From assembly GCA_944391965.1 (NCBI GenBank), contig CALXVH010000006.1:1-63808 (forward strand): a stretch of 63,808 nucleotides of DNA, in the 5' to 3' direction. The position numbers and the translations under genes are program-made. Shown here piece after piece: positions 4 to 63,807 of the stretch. Within the stretch, counting starts at the first letter, position 1. The number at the start of each line of letters is the position of its first letter. The notes under the pieces are model-generated. The model searched no databases and was not told where the DNA came from. It saw nothing but the letters and a program-made list of their open reading frames with translations. Origin of the DNA: an uncultured Clostridia bacterium (GTDB lineage Bacteria > Bacillota > Clostridia > TANB77 > CAG-508).

Positions 4-77
<74 letters not shown>

Positions 78-109: not shown

Positions 110-183
<74 letters not shown>

Positions 184-189
184 TTAATT

Positions 190-219
190 AGCAACAACTG
201 ACTTAGTTGTTGCTTTTTT
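190..219 (+). terminator. Intrinsic terminator after the tRNA-Gly pair
   Basis: agcaacaact-gactt-agttgttgct followed by a T run. Confidence 0.85.
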
Positions 220-242
220 ACTACATTCTAAACACTTAATTT

Positions 243-316
243 GCGGGTATATTTTAATGGTAGAATTTCGTGCTTCCGACCCGAAGGTGTGGGTTCGATT
301 CCCACTACCCGCTCCA
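243..316 (+). tRNA. Atypical tRNA-Gly (nominal anticodon TCC; loop CTTCCGA, G37, mismatched anticodon stem)
   Basis: Acceptor gcgggta/tacccgc, U73 and CCA (Gly identity); perfect T arm gtggg/cccac; weak D stem tttt/gaat; anticodon stem tcgtg/cccga with U30-C40 mismatch. Confidence 0.85.
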
Positions 317-620: not shown

Positions 621-1697
621 ATGAATAATTTAGTTATGTTTATAAAAAATAAATTAATTGAACTAACTTTAAAGAAAAATAAATTGTTAGATCATTTAGG
701 ATTGCTATCAACAAGTTCAGAAAGTTTTGGATCTATCCATGATATATTAAAAAACTTAAACTCTTCTAAAATTAATTTACAATTACATAAAGAAGATTCA
801 AAAGATAAAGACTATATCTTTTCTATAATAAACACTCTAGAAAAAAATGGAATACAAGTTACTTTAACAGAATTTGATAAAATTTTTTCTAATGAAGATG
901 TTAAAAATATTAGTCAATTTTGTAAAACAGCCAAAATAGATTTTAGGTATGTATATCCTAATTTTTGGGGTGCAACCAATATTAATACTAAAATGGATAT
1001 CAAATCTTATCTTAAAATATTAAAAAAAATTGAATATTTAACTAAAGTTGCAACTTCAAATTTTATTCGAAAAGAAGAACAAATAATATTCATTGCTAAT
1101 CAAATATCGGAATACGTAACTTATGATTTTGAAAATGAAAAAAAGTCAGAAGAAGAATATCTTAAACTTTCTAGTTTACAAGGATGTTTAGAAGACAGAA
1201 ATACAGTCTGTGCCGGAATTGCCTTTGCTTTTGAACGATGTATGACAGAAATGGGAATTAAAAACATCCTTATTCTTGGTTACAGTGGAAAAAAGGATAA
1301 CCCATCAGGAATAGATAACAACCACGTTTGGAATAAAGTTTATATTGATGGTAAGTGGTACAATGTTGATATTACTAACATACTTAAAAATCCGAACACT
1401 ACTCTTTCTAAAGAAGAAAGAGTAAATATTTTTATATTATCAAGTGACAAAAGTTTAAGTAAAGTAGGCAATGTGATAACTGATTACAGCAATATCCCTG
1501 ACTCTAATGAGAATTTTGCAGAAACATTAGATATATATAGAAAAATAAATAAAGTCAAAAATGTTTTAAAAGATTATGATAATGGAAATAGAAATCTGTT
1601 TTTAAAATATAAAGTTGAATATACTAATACTTCTAATTCAATTGAACAATTATCAAAAACAAGAAACAATAATAAAAAAGATGGAAAAACTAGATAA
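621..1697 (+). CDS. Transglutaminase-like (papain-fold) domain protein
   Basis: Cys-His-Asp motifs VCAGIAFAF ... NHVWNKVYIDGKWYNVDIT. Confidence 0.8.
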   Translation: MNNLVMFIKNKLIELTLKKNKLLDHLGLLSTSSESFGSIHDILKNLNSSKINLQLHKEDSKDKDYIFSIINTLEKNGIQVTLTEFDKIFSNEDVKNISQFCKTAKIDFRYVYPNFWGATNINTKMDIKSYLKILKKIEYLTKVATSNFIRKEEQIIFIANQISEYVTYDFENEKKSEEEYLKLSSLQGCLEDRNTVCAGIAFAFERCMTEMGIKNILILGYSGKKDNPSGIDNNHVWNKVYIDGKWYNVDITNILKNPNTTLSKEERVNIFILSSDKSLSKVGNVITDYSNIPDSNENFAETLDIYRKINKVKNVLKDYDNGNRNLFLKYKVEYTNTSNSIEQLSKTRNNNKKDGKTR

Positions 1698-2780: not shown

Positions 2781-3479
2781 TTATTGGCTTTCAATTATAT
2801 AATATTTACAGTCCCTATATTTATATTTTGGATCTCTTGCATTAATATTGATTATTTTACAATCTTTCCATTGGAATGGGTATTTTTTATCTTGCAAATC
2901 AATTATATATTTTTCTCTACCAGTTGGTTTTAATATTTTCCCTGTAAGTAATTCTTTATAATCTCCACGAAAATATTTATAAATATCTATTCCTCTATTT
3001 CCTTCATGGTTACCTTTATAAAAAGACCTTCCTCTTCCTCGTGCCCACACTAATGTTATGCAATATGTTTTTTGAAATTTTTTTTGATTTACTAATTCTT
3101 GCATAAATCTAACATCTTTTACACAACTAAACATTTGCTCAGGGTACTGCCCATTTAATGGAAATTTTAATTCTATGGCATACTGCTGTGAATGATCATA
3201 TTTATAAATTGAAATATCAATCTCTTTTTTTAATACTTTACTATTAATAAAACTATAATTGATATTAAAGTACTTCTTTGCATTTCTTTCGAATTCAATT
3301 TTATATTCTTTTCCATCGTCACATTCTTTTCTTAATTTATACCTTAAAAATATACCTAATTCGTGTTGAAAACTAAACTCGTTATATATTTCAAGTTCAT
3401 TTTCACAAAGGTATTCAAAAAATTCTTCAATCATTTTTTCAAATCTTTCTTTATTTTCGAAATAATCGGAAACTTTCAT
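2781..3479 (-). CDS. Hypothetical protein, PD-(D/E)XK nuclease-like
   Basis: NEFSFQHEL helix, then EIDISI ... AIELK pattern typical of the restriction-endonuclease fold. Confidence 0.55.
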   Translation of the reverse strand: MKVSDYFENKERFEKMIEEFFEYLCENELEIYNEFSFQHELGIFLRYKLRKECDDGKEYKIEFERNAKKYFNINYSFINSKVLKKEIDISIYKYDHSQQYAIELKFPLNGQYPEQMFSCVKDVRFMQELVNQKKFQKTYCITLVWARGRGRSFYKGNHEGNRGIDIYKYFRGDYKELLTGKILKPTGREKYIIDLQDKKYPFQWKDCKIININARDPKYKYRDCKYYIIESQ

Positions 3480-5368: not shown

Positions 5369-5442
5369 TGGTTCGGGTAGTTAGATTCGAACTAACGATC
5401 GTAGGGTCAGAGCCTACTGCCTTACCGCTTGGCCATACCCGA
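5369..5442 (-). tRNA. tRNA-Gln(CTG)
   Basis: Reverse-strand cloverleaf tcgggta...gtagg-ctctgac-cctac...ttcgaat...tacccga-a-cca; U1-A72. Confidence 0.95.
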
Positions 5443-6113: not shown

Positions 6114-8129
6114 CTATTTAAATATTTGTGTTACTTTAGGAAATAGATAATGACTTCCTCCTACTGAATTTGCATCTTCTACCATACTTACTACAACTAA
6201 TTGCTTAGCTGCTGTTTCATCAGCTGTAAATGCATTAAACCAACCAATAACCTCTCCTTCTTCATCTTTACTTGCTTTTAGTTCTGCTGTTCCTGTTTTT
6301 GCACCAATTGTTAATCCTTCTATTTTTGCATCATGTGCGGTTCCATTTGGATTTTCGACAACTTGTATTAAATCTTCTTTTATTGTATTTGCTGCCTCTT
6401 CTGATATAGCATTTTCCTTTAAATATTCTGGTTGTTTATTTTCTTCATATATTATTGTAGGTTTTATCATATTTCCATTATTTACAAATGCAGAATATAT
6501 TGATGCCATATGTATTGGATTTACTAAGATTTGTCCTTGGCCATATCCACTATCTGCGAGTTGAACTTCATCATCTATCTTTCCATCTGTATCATATGTT
6601 GATTTTGATGTAGAAAGTTCAAAACTTATATCTTCATTAAAGCCTAACTTATTAAGACCTTCCATAAATCCATCATATCCTATTTTTAAAGCTGCTTTTG
6701 CAAAATATATATTATCTGATCTTATTAATGCATTTTGCATATTTGCTGTTTCATTATATGGGGTTAATGTTGTTACCATATAATTTCCCCAACTAGAATC
6801 TTTTTGCCAGCTAAGTCCACTTCTTCCAAAATCCTCATTAGGATCAATCTTTCCTTCTGTTATTCCAATTGCTCCTGTTACTGGCTTAAAAGTTGAGCCT
6901 GGTGACCACGTTCCAGTAAATCTATTTAATAATGGTTTATTTTCATCTTGATTTAATGAATTCCATTCATCTGTACTCATTCCTAGAACAAAATCATTAG
7001 AATCATATGATGGTGTACTTACTAAGGCTAAGATTTCTCCTGTTTTGGAATCCATTGCTACATATGCACCCTTATTTTCGTCTAGGCTATCATAAACTTG
7101 CTTTTGTGTAGCTGCATCTATTGTTAATTTTACATCTTTACCATTTTCCAACTCTTGTTTGGCTATTGTTTTTACTTTATCTCCATCTTCATTTTCTATA
7201 TAAATTTCTTTTCCATCTTTTCCTCTTAATGTTTCTTCATAAGCTTTTTCTATTCCTGCTTTACCTATTAAACTATTGCTATTATAACCTTTTCCTGCAT
7301 TTTCTTCTAATTCTTCTGCACTTATGGCTTGTACATAACCAATAAGTTGTGAAGCTTCTTTTCCTAAAGTATATACTCTTGAGCTTTCTGTAGTAATTTT
7401 TACGCCAGGAATTGTTAATGCTTGCTCTTTTATTTGAGATTCTGTCGTTGCAACATTTTTTATTGGTACAAAAGTATCGTCTTTAACATATGACATGTTC
7501 AATTTATTATTTATTGAATCTACTGACACTCCTAAAATTGTTGATAATTTCTGTATATCCTCATCTTTATTAGCACTCATCTTCCCTGGTACAAGTCCTA
7601 TTGATGAAATATTTCCCTTCCCTGCTAACAAAACATTATTTCTATCATATATATTTCCACGTTCAGCTTCTAATGTTTTAACTCTTACTTTATCATTATC
7701 ACCTAACTCAGGAAAGATTATACTATTTGACCAATTAAGTTTATATTCTTTATCTTCTTTTACAAGTGTCGCTGTATTTGTAAAGTTAACCTCGCCTGCT
7801 GAAGTATTCATTTTTTGTGTATATGTAATTTGTTCTCCATTATCTACTTTTTCTACATTTGTAATTTCTGTTGATAAATTTGTCATATCTATTCCGCTAT
7901 ATATTGAATCATTTTTGTTTACAAATGTCTCTTTGGCAGTCTTGTCTTGACTTGATGAACTTATTAGCTCATATGCTTCTTCATATTTTTGCTCACTTAT
8001 TTTTGAGAAGTAATTATTTAACGCATCTTCTGGTTTTTCTGTCTTATTTAAGATAAAAAAAGCTATAATTGCTACAATTATAATTACTAATATTATTAAC
8101 GTCCCTATTAATACCTTTTTATTTTTCAT
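6114..8129 (-). CDS. Class B penicillin-binding protein with NTF2-like (MecA_N) domain
   Basis: N-terminal TM anchor, RGNIYDRN dimerisation domain, transpeptidase motifs STFK, SDN, KTG. Confidence 0.9.
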   Translation of the reverse strand: MKNKKVLIGTLIILVIIIVAIIAFFILNKTEKPEDALNNYFSKISEQKYEEAYELISSSSQDKTAKETFVNKNDSIYSGIDMTNLSTEITNVEKVDNGEQITYTQKMNTSAGEVNFTNTATLVKEDKEYKLNWSNSIIFPELGDNDKVRVKTLEAERGNIYDRNNVLLAGKGNISSIGLVPGKMSANKDEDIQKLSTILGVSVDSINNKLNMSYVKDDTFVPIKNVATTESQIKEQALTIPGVKITTESSRVYTLGKEASQLIGYVQAISAEELEENAGKGYNSNSLIGKAGIEKAYEETLRGKDGKEIYIENEDGDKVKTIAKQELENGKDVKLTIDAATQKQVYDSLDENKGAYVAMDSKTGEILALVSTPSYDSNDFVLGMSTDEWNSLNQDENKPLLNRFTGTWSPGSTFKPVTGAIGITEGKIDPNEDFGRSGLSWQKDSSWGNYMVTTLTPYNETANMQNALIRSDNIYFAKAALKIGYDGFMEGLNKLGFNEDISFELSTSKSTYDTDGKIDDEVQLADSGYGQGQILVNPIHMASIYSAFVNNGNMIKPTIIYEENKQPEYLKENAISEEAANTIKEDLIQVVENPNGTAHDAKIEGLTIGAKTGTAELKASKDEEGEVIGWFNAFTADETAAKQLVVVSMVEDANSVGGSHYLFPKVTQIFK

Positions 8130-35508: not shown

Positions 35509-36891
35509 TTAAAATTCTACTTTTTCAGCAATCCAATTTTCTAATTCGTCAATATTTACTCTTACTTGTTCCATTGTATCCCTGTCTCTAATTGTTACAC
35601 AATTATCTTCTAATGTATCAAAATCTATTGTTACACAATAAGGTGTTCCTATTTCGTCTTCTCTTCTATATCTCTTTCCTATACTTCCTGCTTCATCATA
35701 ATCACACATAAATTTCTTTGCTAAATTTGTATATACTTCTGTTGCTTTTTCAGATAATTTTTTAGATAAAGGTAAAACTGCAACTTTATATGGGGCTAAA
35801 GCTGGATGTAAATGTAATACTGTTCTTACATCTCCTTCTGCTATTTCTTCCTCTTCATATGCGTTGCATAAGAAAGCTAATAATACTCTATCTGCTCCTA
35901 GTGATGGTTCTATAACATATGGTACATATTTTTCTCCTGTTTCTGGATCTAAATATGACATATCTTGGTTTGAATGGTTCATATGTTGTGTTAAGTCATA
36001 ATCTGTTCTATCTGCAATTCCCCATAATTCTCCCCATCCAAATGGGAATGCAAATTCTATATCTGTTGTTGCTTTGCTATAGAATACTAATTCTTCTTTT
36101 GAATGATCTCTTAAACGTATATTTTCTTTCTTCATTCCTAGGCTTAATAACCAGTTTTCACAATAATCTTTCCAATATTTATGCCATTCTAAATCTGTTC
36201 CTGGTTTACAGAAGAATTCTAGTTCCATTTGTTCAAATTCTCTTGTTCTAAATATAAAGTTTCCTGGTGTTATCTCATTTCTGAAAGCTTTTCCTATTTG
36301 TGCAATACCCATTGGCATTTTCTTTCTTGATGTTCTTAATACATTTTTAAAATCTACAAATATACCTTGTGCTGTTTCTGGTCTTAGATATATTTCTGCT
36401 GTCTTATCTTCTGTAACACCTTGGAATGTTTTAAACATTAAATTAAATTTACGTATATCTGTAAAATTTGTTTTACCACAATTAGGGCAAGGTATCTTAT
36501 TTTCATTAATAAAGTTTATTAATTGTTCATCACTCATACCATCTGCAATCATATCTTTTCCTTGGTCATGAGCCCATTCTTCTATTAATTTATCTGCTCT
36601 GTGTCTTGTTTTACATTCTTTACAATCAATTAATGGATCTGAGAATCCTCCAACATGACCTGATGCAACCCATGTTTCTGGATTCATTAATATTGCTGCA
36701 TCTAATCCTACAATATTTGGTTGTTCTTGAATAAATTTTTTTCTCCATGCGGCTTTAATATTATTTTTAAGCTCGTTTCCTAAAGGACCATAATCCCATG
36801 TATTTGCAAGTCCTCCATAAATCTCTGAACCTGGATATACATATCCTCTTGATTTGCATAATGCTACGATTTTTTCCATTGAATCTACCAT
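35509..36891 (-). CDS. glyS: Glycine--tRNA ligase (homodimeric type)
   Basis: [41 protein letters not shown]; upstream Gly T-box. Confidence 0.97.
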
Positions 36892-37038: not shown

Positions 37039-37228
37039 AAAAAACTTCCGTACCTAGCATATTAGCTAGGGACGAAAGTTATATTCCGCGGTTCCACCCT
37101 AATTGATAAATTTAATTATCCACTTCGTTAAAATTGTGCTCCAAAGCTCCCCATATTTTTTAGCTATTAGTTTACACCAACCACTAACTCTCTTTTAGCT
37201 TTAAAATACTTTTTCTTTTTCATCGCAC
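37039..37228 (-). promoter_or_regulatory. T-box riboswitch (glycine)
   Basis: Minus strand: stem I with AG box and GGTG apical loop, Gly specifier in ggggag, T-box AGGGTGGAACCGCG, terminator followed by a T run; upstream of glyS. Confidence 0.92.
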
Positions 37229-37279
37229 TTATTAAATTTATATACTTATATCATATTATTTACAAAAAATCAAGGATTA

Positions 37280-63538: not shown

Positions 63539-63752
63539 ACAAAAAAATAGTAGTATCTGATAATTTTTGATACTACTATTTTTGGTGCCTCGAACGGGAA
63601 TCGGCGAGCCGCGTCCTAAAAACAGTCCTCTGACTGTTTTTGCCTTCACTATGTTCAGGCACGTCCTTTTCGATTCCCATTATAATTACAAAAAAATAGT
63701 AGTATCTGATAATTTTTGATACTACTATTTTTGGTGCCTCGAACGGGAATCG
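63539..63752. repeat. 65-bp direct repeat (tRNA-Phe 3' end plus terminator) enclosing a hairpin-rich spacer
   Basis: 63539-63603 is identical to 63688-63752; spacer holds aaaaacagtc-ctct-gactgttttt. Confidence 0.9.
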
Positions 63753-63807
63753 AACCAGTGACACAGGGATTTTCAGTCCCTTGCTCTACCAACTGAGCTA
63801 TCGAGGC
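63732..63807 (-). tRNA. tRNA-Phe(GAA)
   Basis: Reverse-strand cloverleaf gcctcga...aggga-ctgaaaa-tccct...ttcgatt...tcgaggc-a-cca. Confidence 0.96.

Follow-up and report, generated by a model that had tools for sequence, protein, structure and literature searches.

The 63,808-nucleotide stretch of DNA analysed here (the window; contig CALXVH010000006.1 of assembly GCA_944391965.1) is contig C6 of a 1.50-Mb draft genome (G000; 27.5% G+C, 45 contigs, 92% complete) of an uncultured Clostridia bacterium of the order TANB77. It begins with three tRNA-Gly(UCC) genes, the third of which, at positions 243-316, departs from the other two mainly in its anticodon arm. We propose, with confidence a little above even, that this third gene encodes a functional, separately transcribed and ribosome-active second isodecoder of tRNA-Gly(UCC), here called the G-type, which would not be redundant with the canonical species. 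The comparative data indicate a selected gene of full length rather than a remnant, and the tRNA it encodes probably has a job of its own in protein synthesis. The gene is conserved and its stems covary, it is specific to one order among the genomes searched, many of its copies are preceded by promoters, and its anticodon arm has been copied by phages. The genes and signals concerned are as follows.

4-77, forward strand: canonical (A-type) tRNA-Gly(UCC), copy 1, called by ARAGORN; Rfam tRNA score 68.9 bits; A37 and a fully paired anticodon stem, CCAGC/GCTGG.
110-183, forward strand: canonical tRNA-Gly(UCC), copy 2, called by ARAGORN; 68.9 bits; identical to copy 1.
190-220, forward strand: intrinsic-terminator-like hairpin (190-214, 11-pair stem) and T run, closing the canonical tRNA unit.
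243-316, forward strand: G-type tRNA-Gly(UCC), called by ARAGORN; Rfam tRNA score 59.0 bits; anticodon at 275-277, CCA encoded.
268-284, forward strand: signature anticodon arm TCGTG-CTTCCGA-CCCGA, with the 11-nt core TGCTTCCGACC at 271-281.

The sequence, ARAGORN and Rfam agree that the two upstream genes are identical and canonical, as first described from the letters alone, and the third copy does lie past the terminator of that pair: the hairpin at 190-214 with its T run is the only terminator-like site in positions 1-700, where shuffled sequences gave 0.3. The structural features that the original prediction ascribed to the third copy are likewise present. Its acceptor stem (GCGGGTA/TACCCGC) is perfect and is accompanied by U73 and an encoded CCA, and its equally perfect T arm (GTGGG-TTCGATT-CCCAC) keeps U55 in the loop. 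The D stem is weak (TTTT/GAAT, with U10·U25 and U13·G22) and carries a D loop, AATGGTA, with G18G19. In the anticodon stem TCGTG/CCCGA, U30 (position 271) faces C40 (position 281), and this non-Watson-Crick position adjoins a G31-C39 closing pair; the loop CTTCCGA has G37 at position 278. The Rfam tRNA model flags just pairs 10-25 and 30-40 as non-standard. The alternative fold proposed earlier, a 4-bp stem with an 11-nt loop, is possible in this copy provided that U26-A44 is counted as a pair, although the loop has 7 nt in the cloverleaf; the lower anticodon stem is weak, and its opening would give a loop of 9-11 nt. Of the 24 tRNAs assembled here, just two others have G37, tRNA-Pro(tgg) and tRNA-Leu(tag), and in each of them it follows G36. 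The other tRNA-Gly of these genomes combine A37 with a Watson-Crick 30-40 pair, and the G-type departs from them on both counts (G37 in all, U·C in 81 of 86 distinct sequences).

These features are far beyond chance, because the same features recur in relatives. A BLAST search with the 74 nt against 60 relatives and the genome itself gave full-length matches of 84-100% identity in many species, among them a 100% identical tRNA in six other species of the genus. All 29 of the 29 homologues fetched keep TG-CTTCCGA-CC, and both the loop and the mismatch are thereby conserved in related genomes. The stem around the mismatch differs by lineage (TCGTG/CCCGA, TCATG/CCTGA, CAGTG/CCCTG, TGGTG/CCCCA, CTGTG/CCCAG), and covariation was assessed in a set of 86 distinct 74-nt sequences (A2), mostly gathered with a pattern that fixes the core. 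Pairing holds in 94.9% of the cells of this set, compared with 80.9% after shuffling, and the observed values were reached by 0 of 500 shuffles. Double changes occur in 15 of the 21 pairs with all four stems represented, including 38, 25 and 29 at pairs 27-43, 28-42 and 29-41, and the Levitt pair 15-48 covaries as well (A15-U48 in 32 sequences, G15-C48 in 48). At position 30-40, 81 sequences have U·C and 5 have G-C, the latter being the form of one family of the order (f3 of the five, f1 to f5) and going with G31·U39; A30·C40 was seen in one f1 genome. The U10·U25 of the window's copy is found in just 7 of the 86, whereas C32 and A38 are invariant and the D loop and T loop are invariant or nearly so. 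The glycine identity elements, given in the accessible part of PMC7826273 as G1-C72, C2-G71, U73, C35 and C36, are all in place: G1-C72 in 86 of 86, C2-G71 in 76 with U2-A71 in the other 10, and U73, C35 and C36 without exception. G51-C63 is present in 85 of 86, and the T stem of the window's copy reads G49-C65, U50-A64, G51-C63. The earlier view that the changes are not random decay, and that the tRNA is a specialised and selected one, thus agrees with its conservation, with the covariation of its stems, and with the promoters and the presence in an RNA library described below.

The distribution of the gene follows the order. The exact pattern was sought in 301 genomes of the order and a loose pattern (CTTCCGA-N13-T loop) in 88, negatives in these samples meaning not found in the genomes searched. 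The exact pattern occurs in 194 of 301 genomes (156/175 in f1, 31/33 in f5, 3/4 in f4, 3/79 in f3 and 0/9 in f2), and a reversed-pattern control gave 0 matches in the same sample. The G37 loop with any stem is present in 75 of 88 (25/25 in f1, 24/25 in f3, 23/25 in f5, 3/4 in f4, 0/9 in f2), so that four of the five families carry a G37-type tRNA-Gly(UCC). The f3 version has the stem AAAGG/TCTTT or CAAGG/TCTTT, with G30-C40 and G31·U39, and the core TGCTTCCGACC is invariant across f1, f4, f5 and the phage copies; the traits common to the whole class are G37 and a weakened lower anticodon stem. Outside the order, the loose pattern was found in 0 of 107 genomes of other Clostridia families and the exact pattern in 0 of 385 genomes. 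A scan of one genome per species yielded at least 121 matches. Of the 80 loci for which titles were listed, nearly all are labelled as metagenome-assembled genomes of uncultured Clostridia from animal or human guts, and Ca. Scatovivens and Ca. Ventrenecus are represented as well.

The copies of relatives point to separate transcription. A sigma-70-type promoter of the form TTGnnn-16..18-TAtAAT, ending 8-20 nt 5' of the gene, is present in 59 of 140 distinct upstream regions, where 1.6 were expected from shuffles, and in close relatives with an identical tRNA a TATAAT lies 10 nt before the gene. A chicken-gut metatranscriptome contains a 78-nt contig (depth 19.1) that covers positions 241-316 without differences; none is reported at position 278 either, where contigs cannot show misincorporation. 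Positions 601-2100 are uncovered in this library, and a DNA-like run covers all 30 bins. The contig is weak evidence of transcription, and the contig ends at 243 and 316 are uninformative on RNA ends, because they fall at branch points of the assembly.

The 147 loci examined (653 open reading frames, ORFs) show no gene that regularly adjoins the G-type. Only recombinases recur: a large serine recombinase follows the G-type in 12 loci, and a tyrosine integrase is its neighbour in 5, on the downstream side in 4 of them. Since 11 of 47 matches in the viral database IMG/VR also fall within 300 nt of a contig end, the gene is a common attachment site. This frequent integration, together with the lower tRNA score (59 against 68.9 bits) and a poor minimum-free-energy fold, is what could be said for the third copy being a pseudo-tRNA or the remnant of an attachment site, with no role of its own, as had been allowed for at the outset. 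However, functional tRNA genes normally serve as integration sites too, and the conservation and covariation refute that alternative: with full length, compensatory changes in all four stems, retention across the order, the promoters and the RNA-library contig to account for, we give it practically no probability.

The strongest sign that the arm itself is a functional element comes from phages, in which the arm survives while the rest of the molecule diverges. The viral search, made with the G-type pattern only, returned 11 IMG/VR loci with the same arm, xxxTG-CTTCCGA-CCxxx, on very different tRNA bodies, with unrelated acceptor stems such as GTGACTA, GTCGATA, GCACCAA and GCAGTAA. One copy (L217) sits between homing endonucleases, with a major head protein, a maturation protease and an adaptor alongside; three further loci (L228, L238 and L205) are tRNA arrays with HNH/homing endonucleases, a nudix hydrolase and a nucleotidyltransferase; and a 193-kb viral contig (L234) has 12 tRNAs with a gene for a Thg1-like tRNA-His guanylyltransferase beside the array, the G-type and an A37-type tRNA-Gly(UCC) being 138 nt apart. 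No GenBank phage with the G-type was found, the best match to the window's tRNA being 78% and the top hit an A37-type staphylococcal host tRNA, and the divergent copy of L217 had no full-length match among GenBank phages. Phage tRNA arrays serve translation or counter tRNA-directed defence, and a role in the cell wall or at a riboswitch would therefore not explain the phage copies. As a separate observation, the arrays of the large uncultured phages L234, L238 and L228 include odd loops, such as a tRNA-Glu with CTTTCTA and thus a pyrimidine at position 37.

The main rival to a decoding role takes up the second purpose of such arrays. In this explanation a nuclease of a defence, toxin-antitoxin or bacteriocin system would attack the canonical tRNA-Gly(UCC), and the G-type would be a back-up tRNA that escapes this or another anticodon-arm-directed tRNase, toxin or modifying enzyme; A37G and the altered 30-40 and 31-39 positions would make it a poor substrate, translation of GGA and GGG would go on, and its carriage by phages would be explained likewise. 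The positions at which it departs from the canonical tRNA are exactly those that anticodon nucleases read and cut, on the 3' side of the loop and in the lower stem, and anticodon-arm changes relative to the canonical host tRNA are found together with phage carriage. The G-type arm is present in phage arrays, in at least 10 divergent loci it is the only type seen within 3 kb, and other tRNAs of the same arrays have odd loops, the tRNA-Glu above being an example. There is also a precedent in phage tRNAs predicted to evade VapC, PrrC and colicins via anticodon-loop changes, as described in the accessible part of PMC10264068; PMC11555353 and PMC12409363 may be compared. However, the arm on the phage tRNAs matches the host's own G-type arm exactly and does not depart from every host tRNA, vertical retention in about 85-100% of genomes of four families would need a very persistent selective agent, and the share of A-type tRNAs in these phages lies outside a viral scan that sought the G-type pattern only. 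A nuclease that could play this part was not identified, in a genome on which no scan for defence systems was run. We accordingly give this explanation a minor though appreciable share of the probability, roughly that of one chance in several.

For the decoding role that we prefer, the molecule would work as follows. Its loop CUUCCGA, with G37 (probably as 1-methylguanosine, m1G37) above a deliberately non-Watson-Crick 30-40 position, would be borne by a tRNA body whose acceptor stem, U73 and C35-C36 would fit glycyl-tRNA synthetase (GlyRS) and whose T stem (G49-C65, U50-A64, G51-C63) and G18G19/T-loop elbow would fit EF-Tu and the ribosome. Because these features fit, the G-type is most likely glycylated and used on the ribosome for GGA and GGG; we infer its charging, its ribosome use, m1G37 and a functional difference from the canonical tRNA from such features of the sequence. 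The synthetase and the leader of its gene are encoded in the window.

35509-36891, reverse strand: ORF for a glycyl-tRNA synthetase, putatively of the single-chain (alpha2) type as read from its N-terminal sequence.
37065-37232, reverse strand: T-box leader of glyS (Rfam RF00230, 102.1 bits), specifier GGA, complementary to the UCC anticodon.

This GlyRS is expected to charge all tRNA-Gly species, and each of the 61 relatives searched (61 of 61) has a match to it at E <= 1e-30. In bacteria a G at position 37 is as a rule methylated to m1G, m1G-type signatures having been seen wherever it was examined in four bacteria, and m1G37 also follows A36 in S. aureus tRNA-Phe (PMC6297222 and PMC13443448). 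MnmE and MnmG, identified by motifs and operon order, are encoded at C2:109356-112858, and a differing U34 chemistry on the two UCC species is therefore conceivable.

Decoding on paper does not need the third tRNA. The canonical UCC pattern is present in 159 of 175 f1 genomes; tRNA-Gly(GCC) adjoins tRNA-Cys in close relatives and is missing from the present 24-tRNA assembly. Codon use in 1229 long ORFs is 33.1 per 1000 for GGA, 17.6 for GGT, 3.5 for GGC and 3.0 for GGG. The retention of the G-type beside the canonical A37 UCC and the GCC species would mean that the two UCC species are not interchangeable, possibly by virtue of a different modification state at the wobble position or position 37, or of different decoding or frame-keeping properties. 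A peculiarity of another kind was seen in the A37-type tRNA-Gly(UCC) of f2 and f3 (L290, L295, L296, L298 and L300-L304), in which the T loop is TCCGATT, with C55 in place of the near-universal U55, and the T stem is G49·U65/U50-A64/G51-C63; in f2 this C55 form is the only UCC tRNA found.

Several results weigh against the reading of a second, separately transcribed decoder. The anticodon arm of the third copy is thermodynamically weak. In the minimum-free-energy structure of this copy (-22.2 kcal/mol, z -1.48) both the D arm and the anticodon arm are missing, whereas that of canonical copy 2, identical to copy 1, is a cloverleaf. No sigma-70-type promoter was called before the window's own copy, and a 115-nt contig in the same RNA library bridges positions 156-270, from canonical copy 2 across the terminator into the third copy, so that transcription of this copy may depend on read-through. 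The RNA evidence consists of assembled contigs, which give no ends, no levels and no modification-induced misincorporation. Invariance of the core is unbiased solely in the 29 copies found by BLAST, the covariation at free positions being unaffected. TrmD, according to partly seen literature, normally needs G36, so that m1G37 after C36 is not assured. Family f2 lacks the G-type altogether (0/9), and no genome was found in which the G-type is demonstrably the sole UCC tRNA, two f5 genomes having been looked at: in G044, with 30 tRNAs, the G-type is the only tRNA-Gly found, in an incomplete set from which several other tRNAs are missing, and in G055, with 33 tRNAs, GCC and the G-type are the tRNA-Gly present, with no detectable A37 copy, in a set that is again incomplete.

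The leader of glyS raises the question of regulation, since the third tRNA might be a dedicated effector, or 'sensor tRNA', of this T-box riboswitch. The specifier can be set as GGA, rather than the usual GGC, because GGA followed by a purine is invariant in 18 of 18 aligned glyS leaders from three families, and it matches the UCC anticodon. Among 50 genomes examined, glyS T-boxes were found in 31 (23/31 in f1, 4/4 in f4, 4/5 in f5, 0/4 in f2, 0/6 in f3) and hence only in the families with the U30·C40 form. In one species of the same genus (G001; locus L260, G001:C1) the G-type gene, at 2976-3046, lies 96 nt downstream of glyS (1501-2880) on the same strand; both lie behind a T-box at 661-831, and co-transcription of the tRNA under T-box control is possible there. 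The glyS T-box of S. aureus, moreover, answers non-proteogenic tRNA-Gly as well, according to the accessible part of PMC4574755. However, the canonical UCC tRNA fits the specifier equally well, a GGA specifier is also known in C. tetani (PMC11404447, seen in part), and phages would have no use for a sensor tRNA. The link is not obligatory, because eight genomes (G027, G025, G026, G007, G033, G030, G044 and G021) have the tRNA and no T-box within 1.5 kb upstream of glyS, and f3 combines the G37-type tRNA in 24 of 25 genomes with glyS T-boxes in 0 of 6. Pairing of the T-box to G37 was considered and rejected, as the base 5' of the GGA specifier varies (G/A/U) and cannot pair with it. A sensor function is on this evidence very unlikely.

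A non-ribosomal role had been suggested in the original prediction, in which the third tRNA would donate glycine to a Fem-type peptidoglycan transferase in the manner of the staphylococcal non-proteogenic tRNA-Gly. The search for transferases that went with it was answered in part: there is one FemAB-family gene (G000:C21:11342-12313; 148.7 and 91.8 bits, with PF13480 matching the same gene), and no gene with PF09924 (aminoacyl-phosphatidylglycerol synthase) or PF03588 (L/F-transferase) was found in the 92% complete genome. Apart from that one gene, the redundancy of the tRNA for decoding on paper would suit a donor, and the unpaired U10/U25 recalls S. aureus NP3 as presented in the accessible part of PMC13443448, although this feature is shared by only those 7 of 86 sequences. 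FemAB (PF02388) and the G-type tRNA are distributed independently. In the 301 genomes FemAB occurs in 107/175 of f1, 8/9 of f2, 79/79 of f3, 4/4 of f4 and 10/33 of f5; the tRNA is found without FemAB in most of f5 and, almost throughout, in six genera of f1 (tRNA and FemAB, respectively: g23, 5/5 and 0/5; g24, 5/6 and 0/6; g12, 9/10 and 0/10; g4, 12/13 and 1/13; g28, 9/11 and 1/11; g32, 5/6 and 0/6), and f2 is the reverse, with FemAB in 8 of 9 and the G37-type tRNA in 0 of 9. The accessible parts of PMC13443448 and PMC7826273 give as staphylococcal hallmarks the loss of G18G19 and U55 and an extra 32-38 pair, to which PMC7826273 adds a weak T stem, A49-U65/U50-A64/A51-U63. These are absent from the G-type, which keeps G18G19 and U55, forms no 32-38 pair and has a high-affinity-type T stem that resembles the proteogenic combination of S. 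aureus and not the non-proteogenic one in the same source. According to PMC7826273, S. aureus and S. epidermidis were until then the only species in which extra non-proteogenic tRNA-Gly had been detected. With no conserved neighbouring enzyme in the 147 loci, and with phages encoding the tRNA, the donor role is not supported for the G-type; the Fem link was rejected on the phyletic distribution, and we regard it as very unlikely.

The other specialised function suggested at first, decoding out of the ordinary frame, fares no better. Positions 34-37 (UCCG) complement CGGA, and the weak lower stem could open to a larger loop; a quadruplet or +1 decoder of this kind, or a tRNA that reads CGG as glycine through a shifted CCG anticodon, would have a precedent in glass-sponge mitochondria, which frameshift at UGG_A/CGG_A and have a tRNA-Gly with an enlarged loop (PMC5009743, seen in part). 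Moreover, tRNA-Arg(CCG) was not found in three draft tRNA sets (G000, G044 and G055), though CGG is used; its absence is not established, because the sets are incomplete, and the gene may belong to a tRNA cluster that was not assembled. Among the 1229 long ORFs there are only 112 CGG codons. They stand in Arg-like surroundings, such as MKKR at N termini, and in adenylosuccinate synthetase one CGG falls on a conserved Arg. A reading of CGG as glycine was therefore rejected. Codon-context counts gave no signal of CGGA quadruplets or +1 frameshifting either: A after CGG is not depleted (0.41 versus 0.40 overall), +1 junction candidates are no commoner at CGGA (3/1593) than at the control CGGT (3/1028), and C precedes GGA at 4.6%, within the range of other G-starting codons. 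With no CGGA signal and CGG meaning Arg, such decoding is even less probable than the donor and sensor roles.

In a wider and more speculative sense, we suggest as a possibility, to which we give distinctly less than even confidence, that two tRNA-Gly(UCC) species with one encoded anticodon are maintained throughout the order and differ in both chemistry and function. The G37/mismatched arm would then be an identity tag that routes one of them to a different modification state at the wobble position or position 37 and a different decoding role, for example as a reader of GGG or in frame-keeping, or away from a tRNA-Gly-directed nuclease, and phages would have to bring their own copy in order to translate. 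If true, translation in this lineage would follow a rule of its own, encoded in the anticodon stem. Bacterial isodecoders are usually treated as redundant copies, and here one is kept across an order of uncultured, small-genome gut Clostridia, with its arm reproduced by phages on unrelated tRNA bodies; this is strong comparative evidence that details of the anticodon arm beyond the anticodon carry function, be it decoding, modification routing or resistance to tRNA-targeting enzymes. The pair offers a natural system for testing how position 37 and the 30-40 pair tune glycine decoding, and the sequence of the arm can serve as a marker by which uncultured phages are assigned to the host order. 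Literature searches gave staphylococcal and general tRNA work and no published description of the G-type, the supplementary tRNA-Gly phylogeny of PMC7826273, which possibly includes Clostridia, aside.

Some further features of the window and genome may be recorded. The tRNA-Gly genes are followed on the 3' side by a gene for a transglutaminase-like protein (621-1697, forward strand); at 6114-8129 (reverse strand) a penicillin-binding protein with a MecA_N NTF2-like domain and a transpeptidase domain is encoded; and the window also holds tRNA-Gln(ctg) (5369-5442, reverse strand) and, at the contig end, tRNA-Phe (63732-63807, reverse strand). Elsewhere in the genome, tRNA-Thr(CGU) (G000:C13:40709-40784) has a poorly paired anticodon stem, GCGGA/CCCGA, with G27·A43 and A31·C39, which is fully paired in f5 genomes, and there are two quite different tRNA-Trp(CCA) genes (G000:C3:95201-95275 and C45:3048-3122), the C45 copy of which may belong to a mobile element.

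Among known tRNAs the G-type is closest to the canonical Firmicute-type tRNA-Gly(UCC), represented by the upstream copies and S. aureus P2. It shares with them the length of 74 nt, G1-C72, C2-G71, U73, C35-C36, C32/A38, G18G19, the TTCGATT T loop and G51-C63, and is 76% identical to the upstream copies and 78% to a staphylococcal host-type A37 copy on a phage record. It differs in having G37 instead of A37, a 30-40 position that is U·C and rarely A·C (or G31·U39 in f3), G31-C39 instead of C31-G39, A7-U66 and a weaker D stem, and in being a single-copy gene outside the tRNA cluster with a promoter of its own (in the 59 of 140 upstream regions mentioned).

A pair with one encoded anticodon and two fates is known in tRNA-Ile2(CAU) and tRNA-Met(CAU), which are told apart by a dedicated modification. 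There, too, two genes with the same genomic anticodon are both kept as non-equivalent, whereas for the G-type no modification enzyme or altered codon reading was identified. The non-proteogenic tRNA-Gly of S. aureus are likewise additional UCC isodecoders that bear GlyRS identity elements and accompany proteogenic GCC and UCC species, NP3 has the unpaired U10/U25, and the present organism also has a Fem-family gene and a glyS T-box; unlike them, the G-type has its changes in the anticodon arm, does not co-occur with Fem genes and is carried by phages. Finally, the nuclease-evading phage tRNAs, as portrayed in the part of PMC10264068 available, resemble the G-type in having the host's canonical anticodon, changes confined to the anticodon arm and a place in phage arrays, and the G-type is set apart from them in that the host order itself inherits it vertically, as part of its core set of chromosomal genes.

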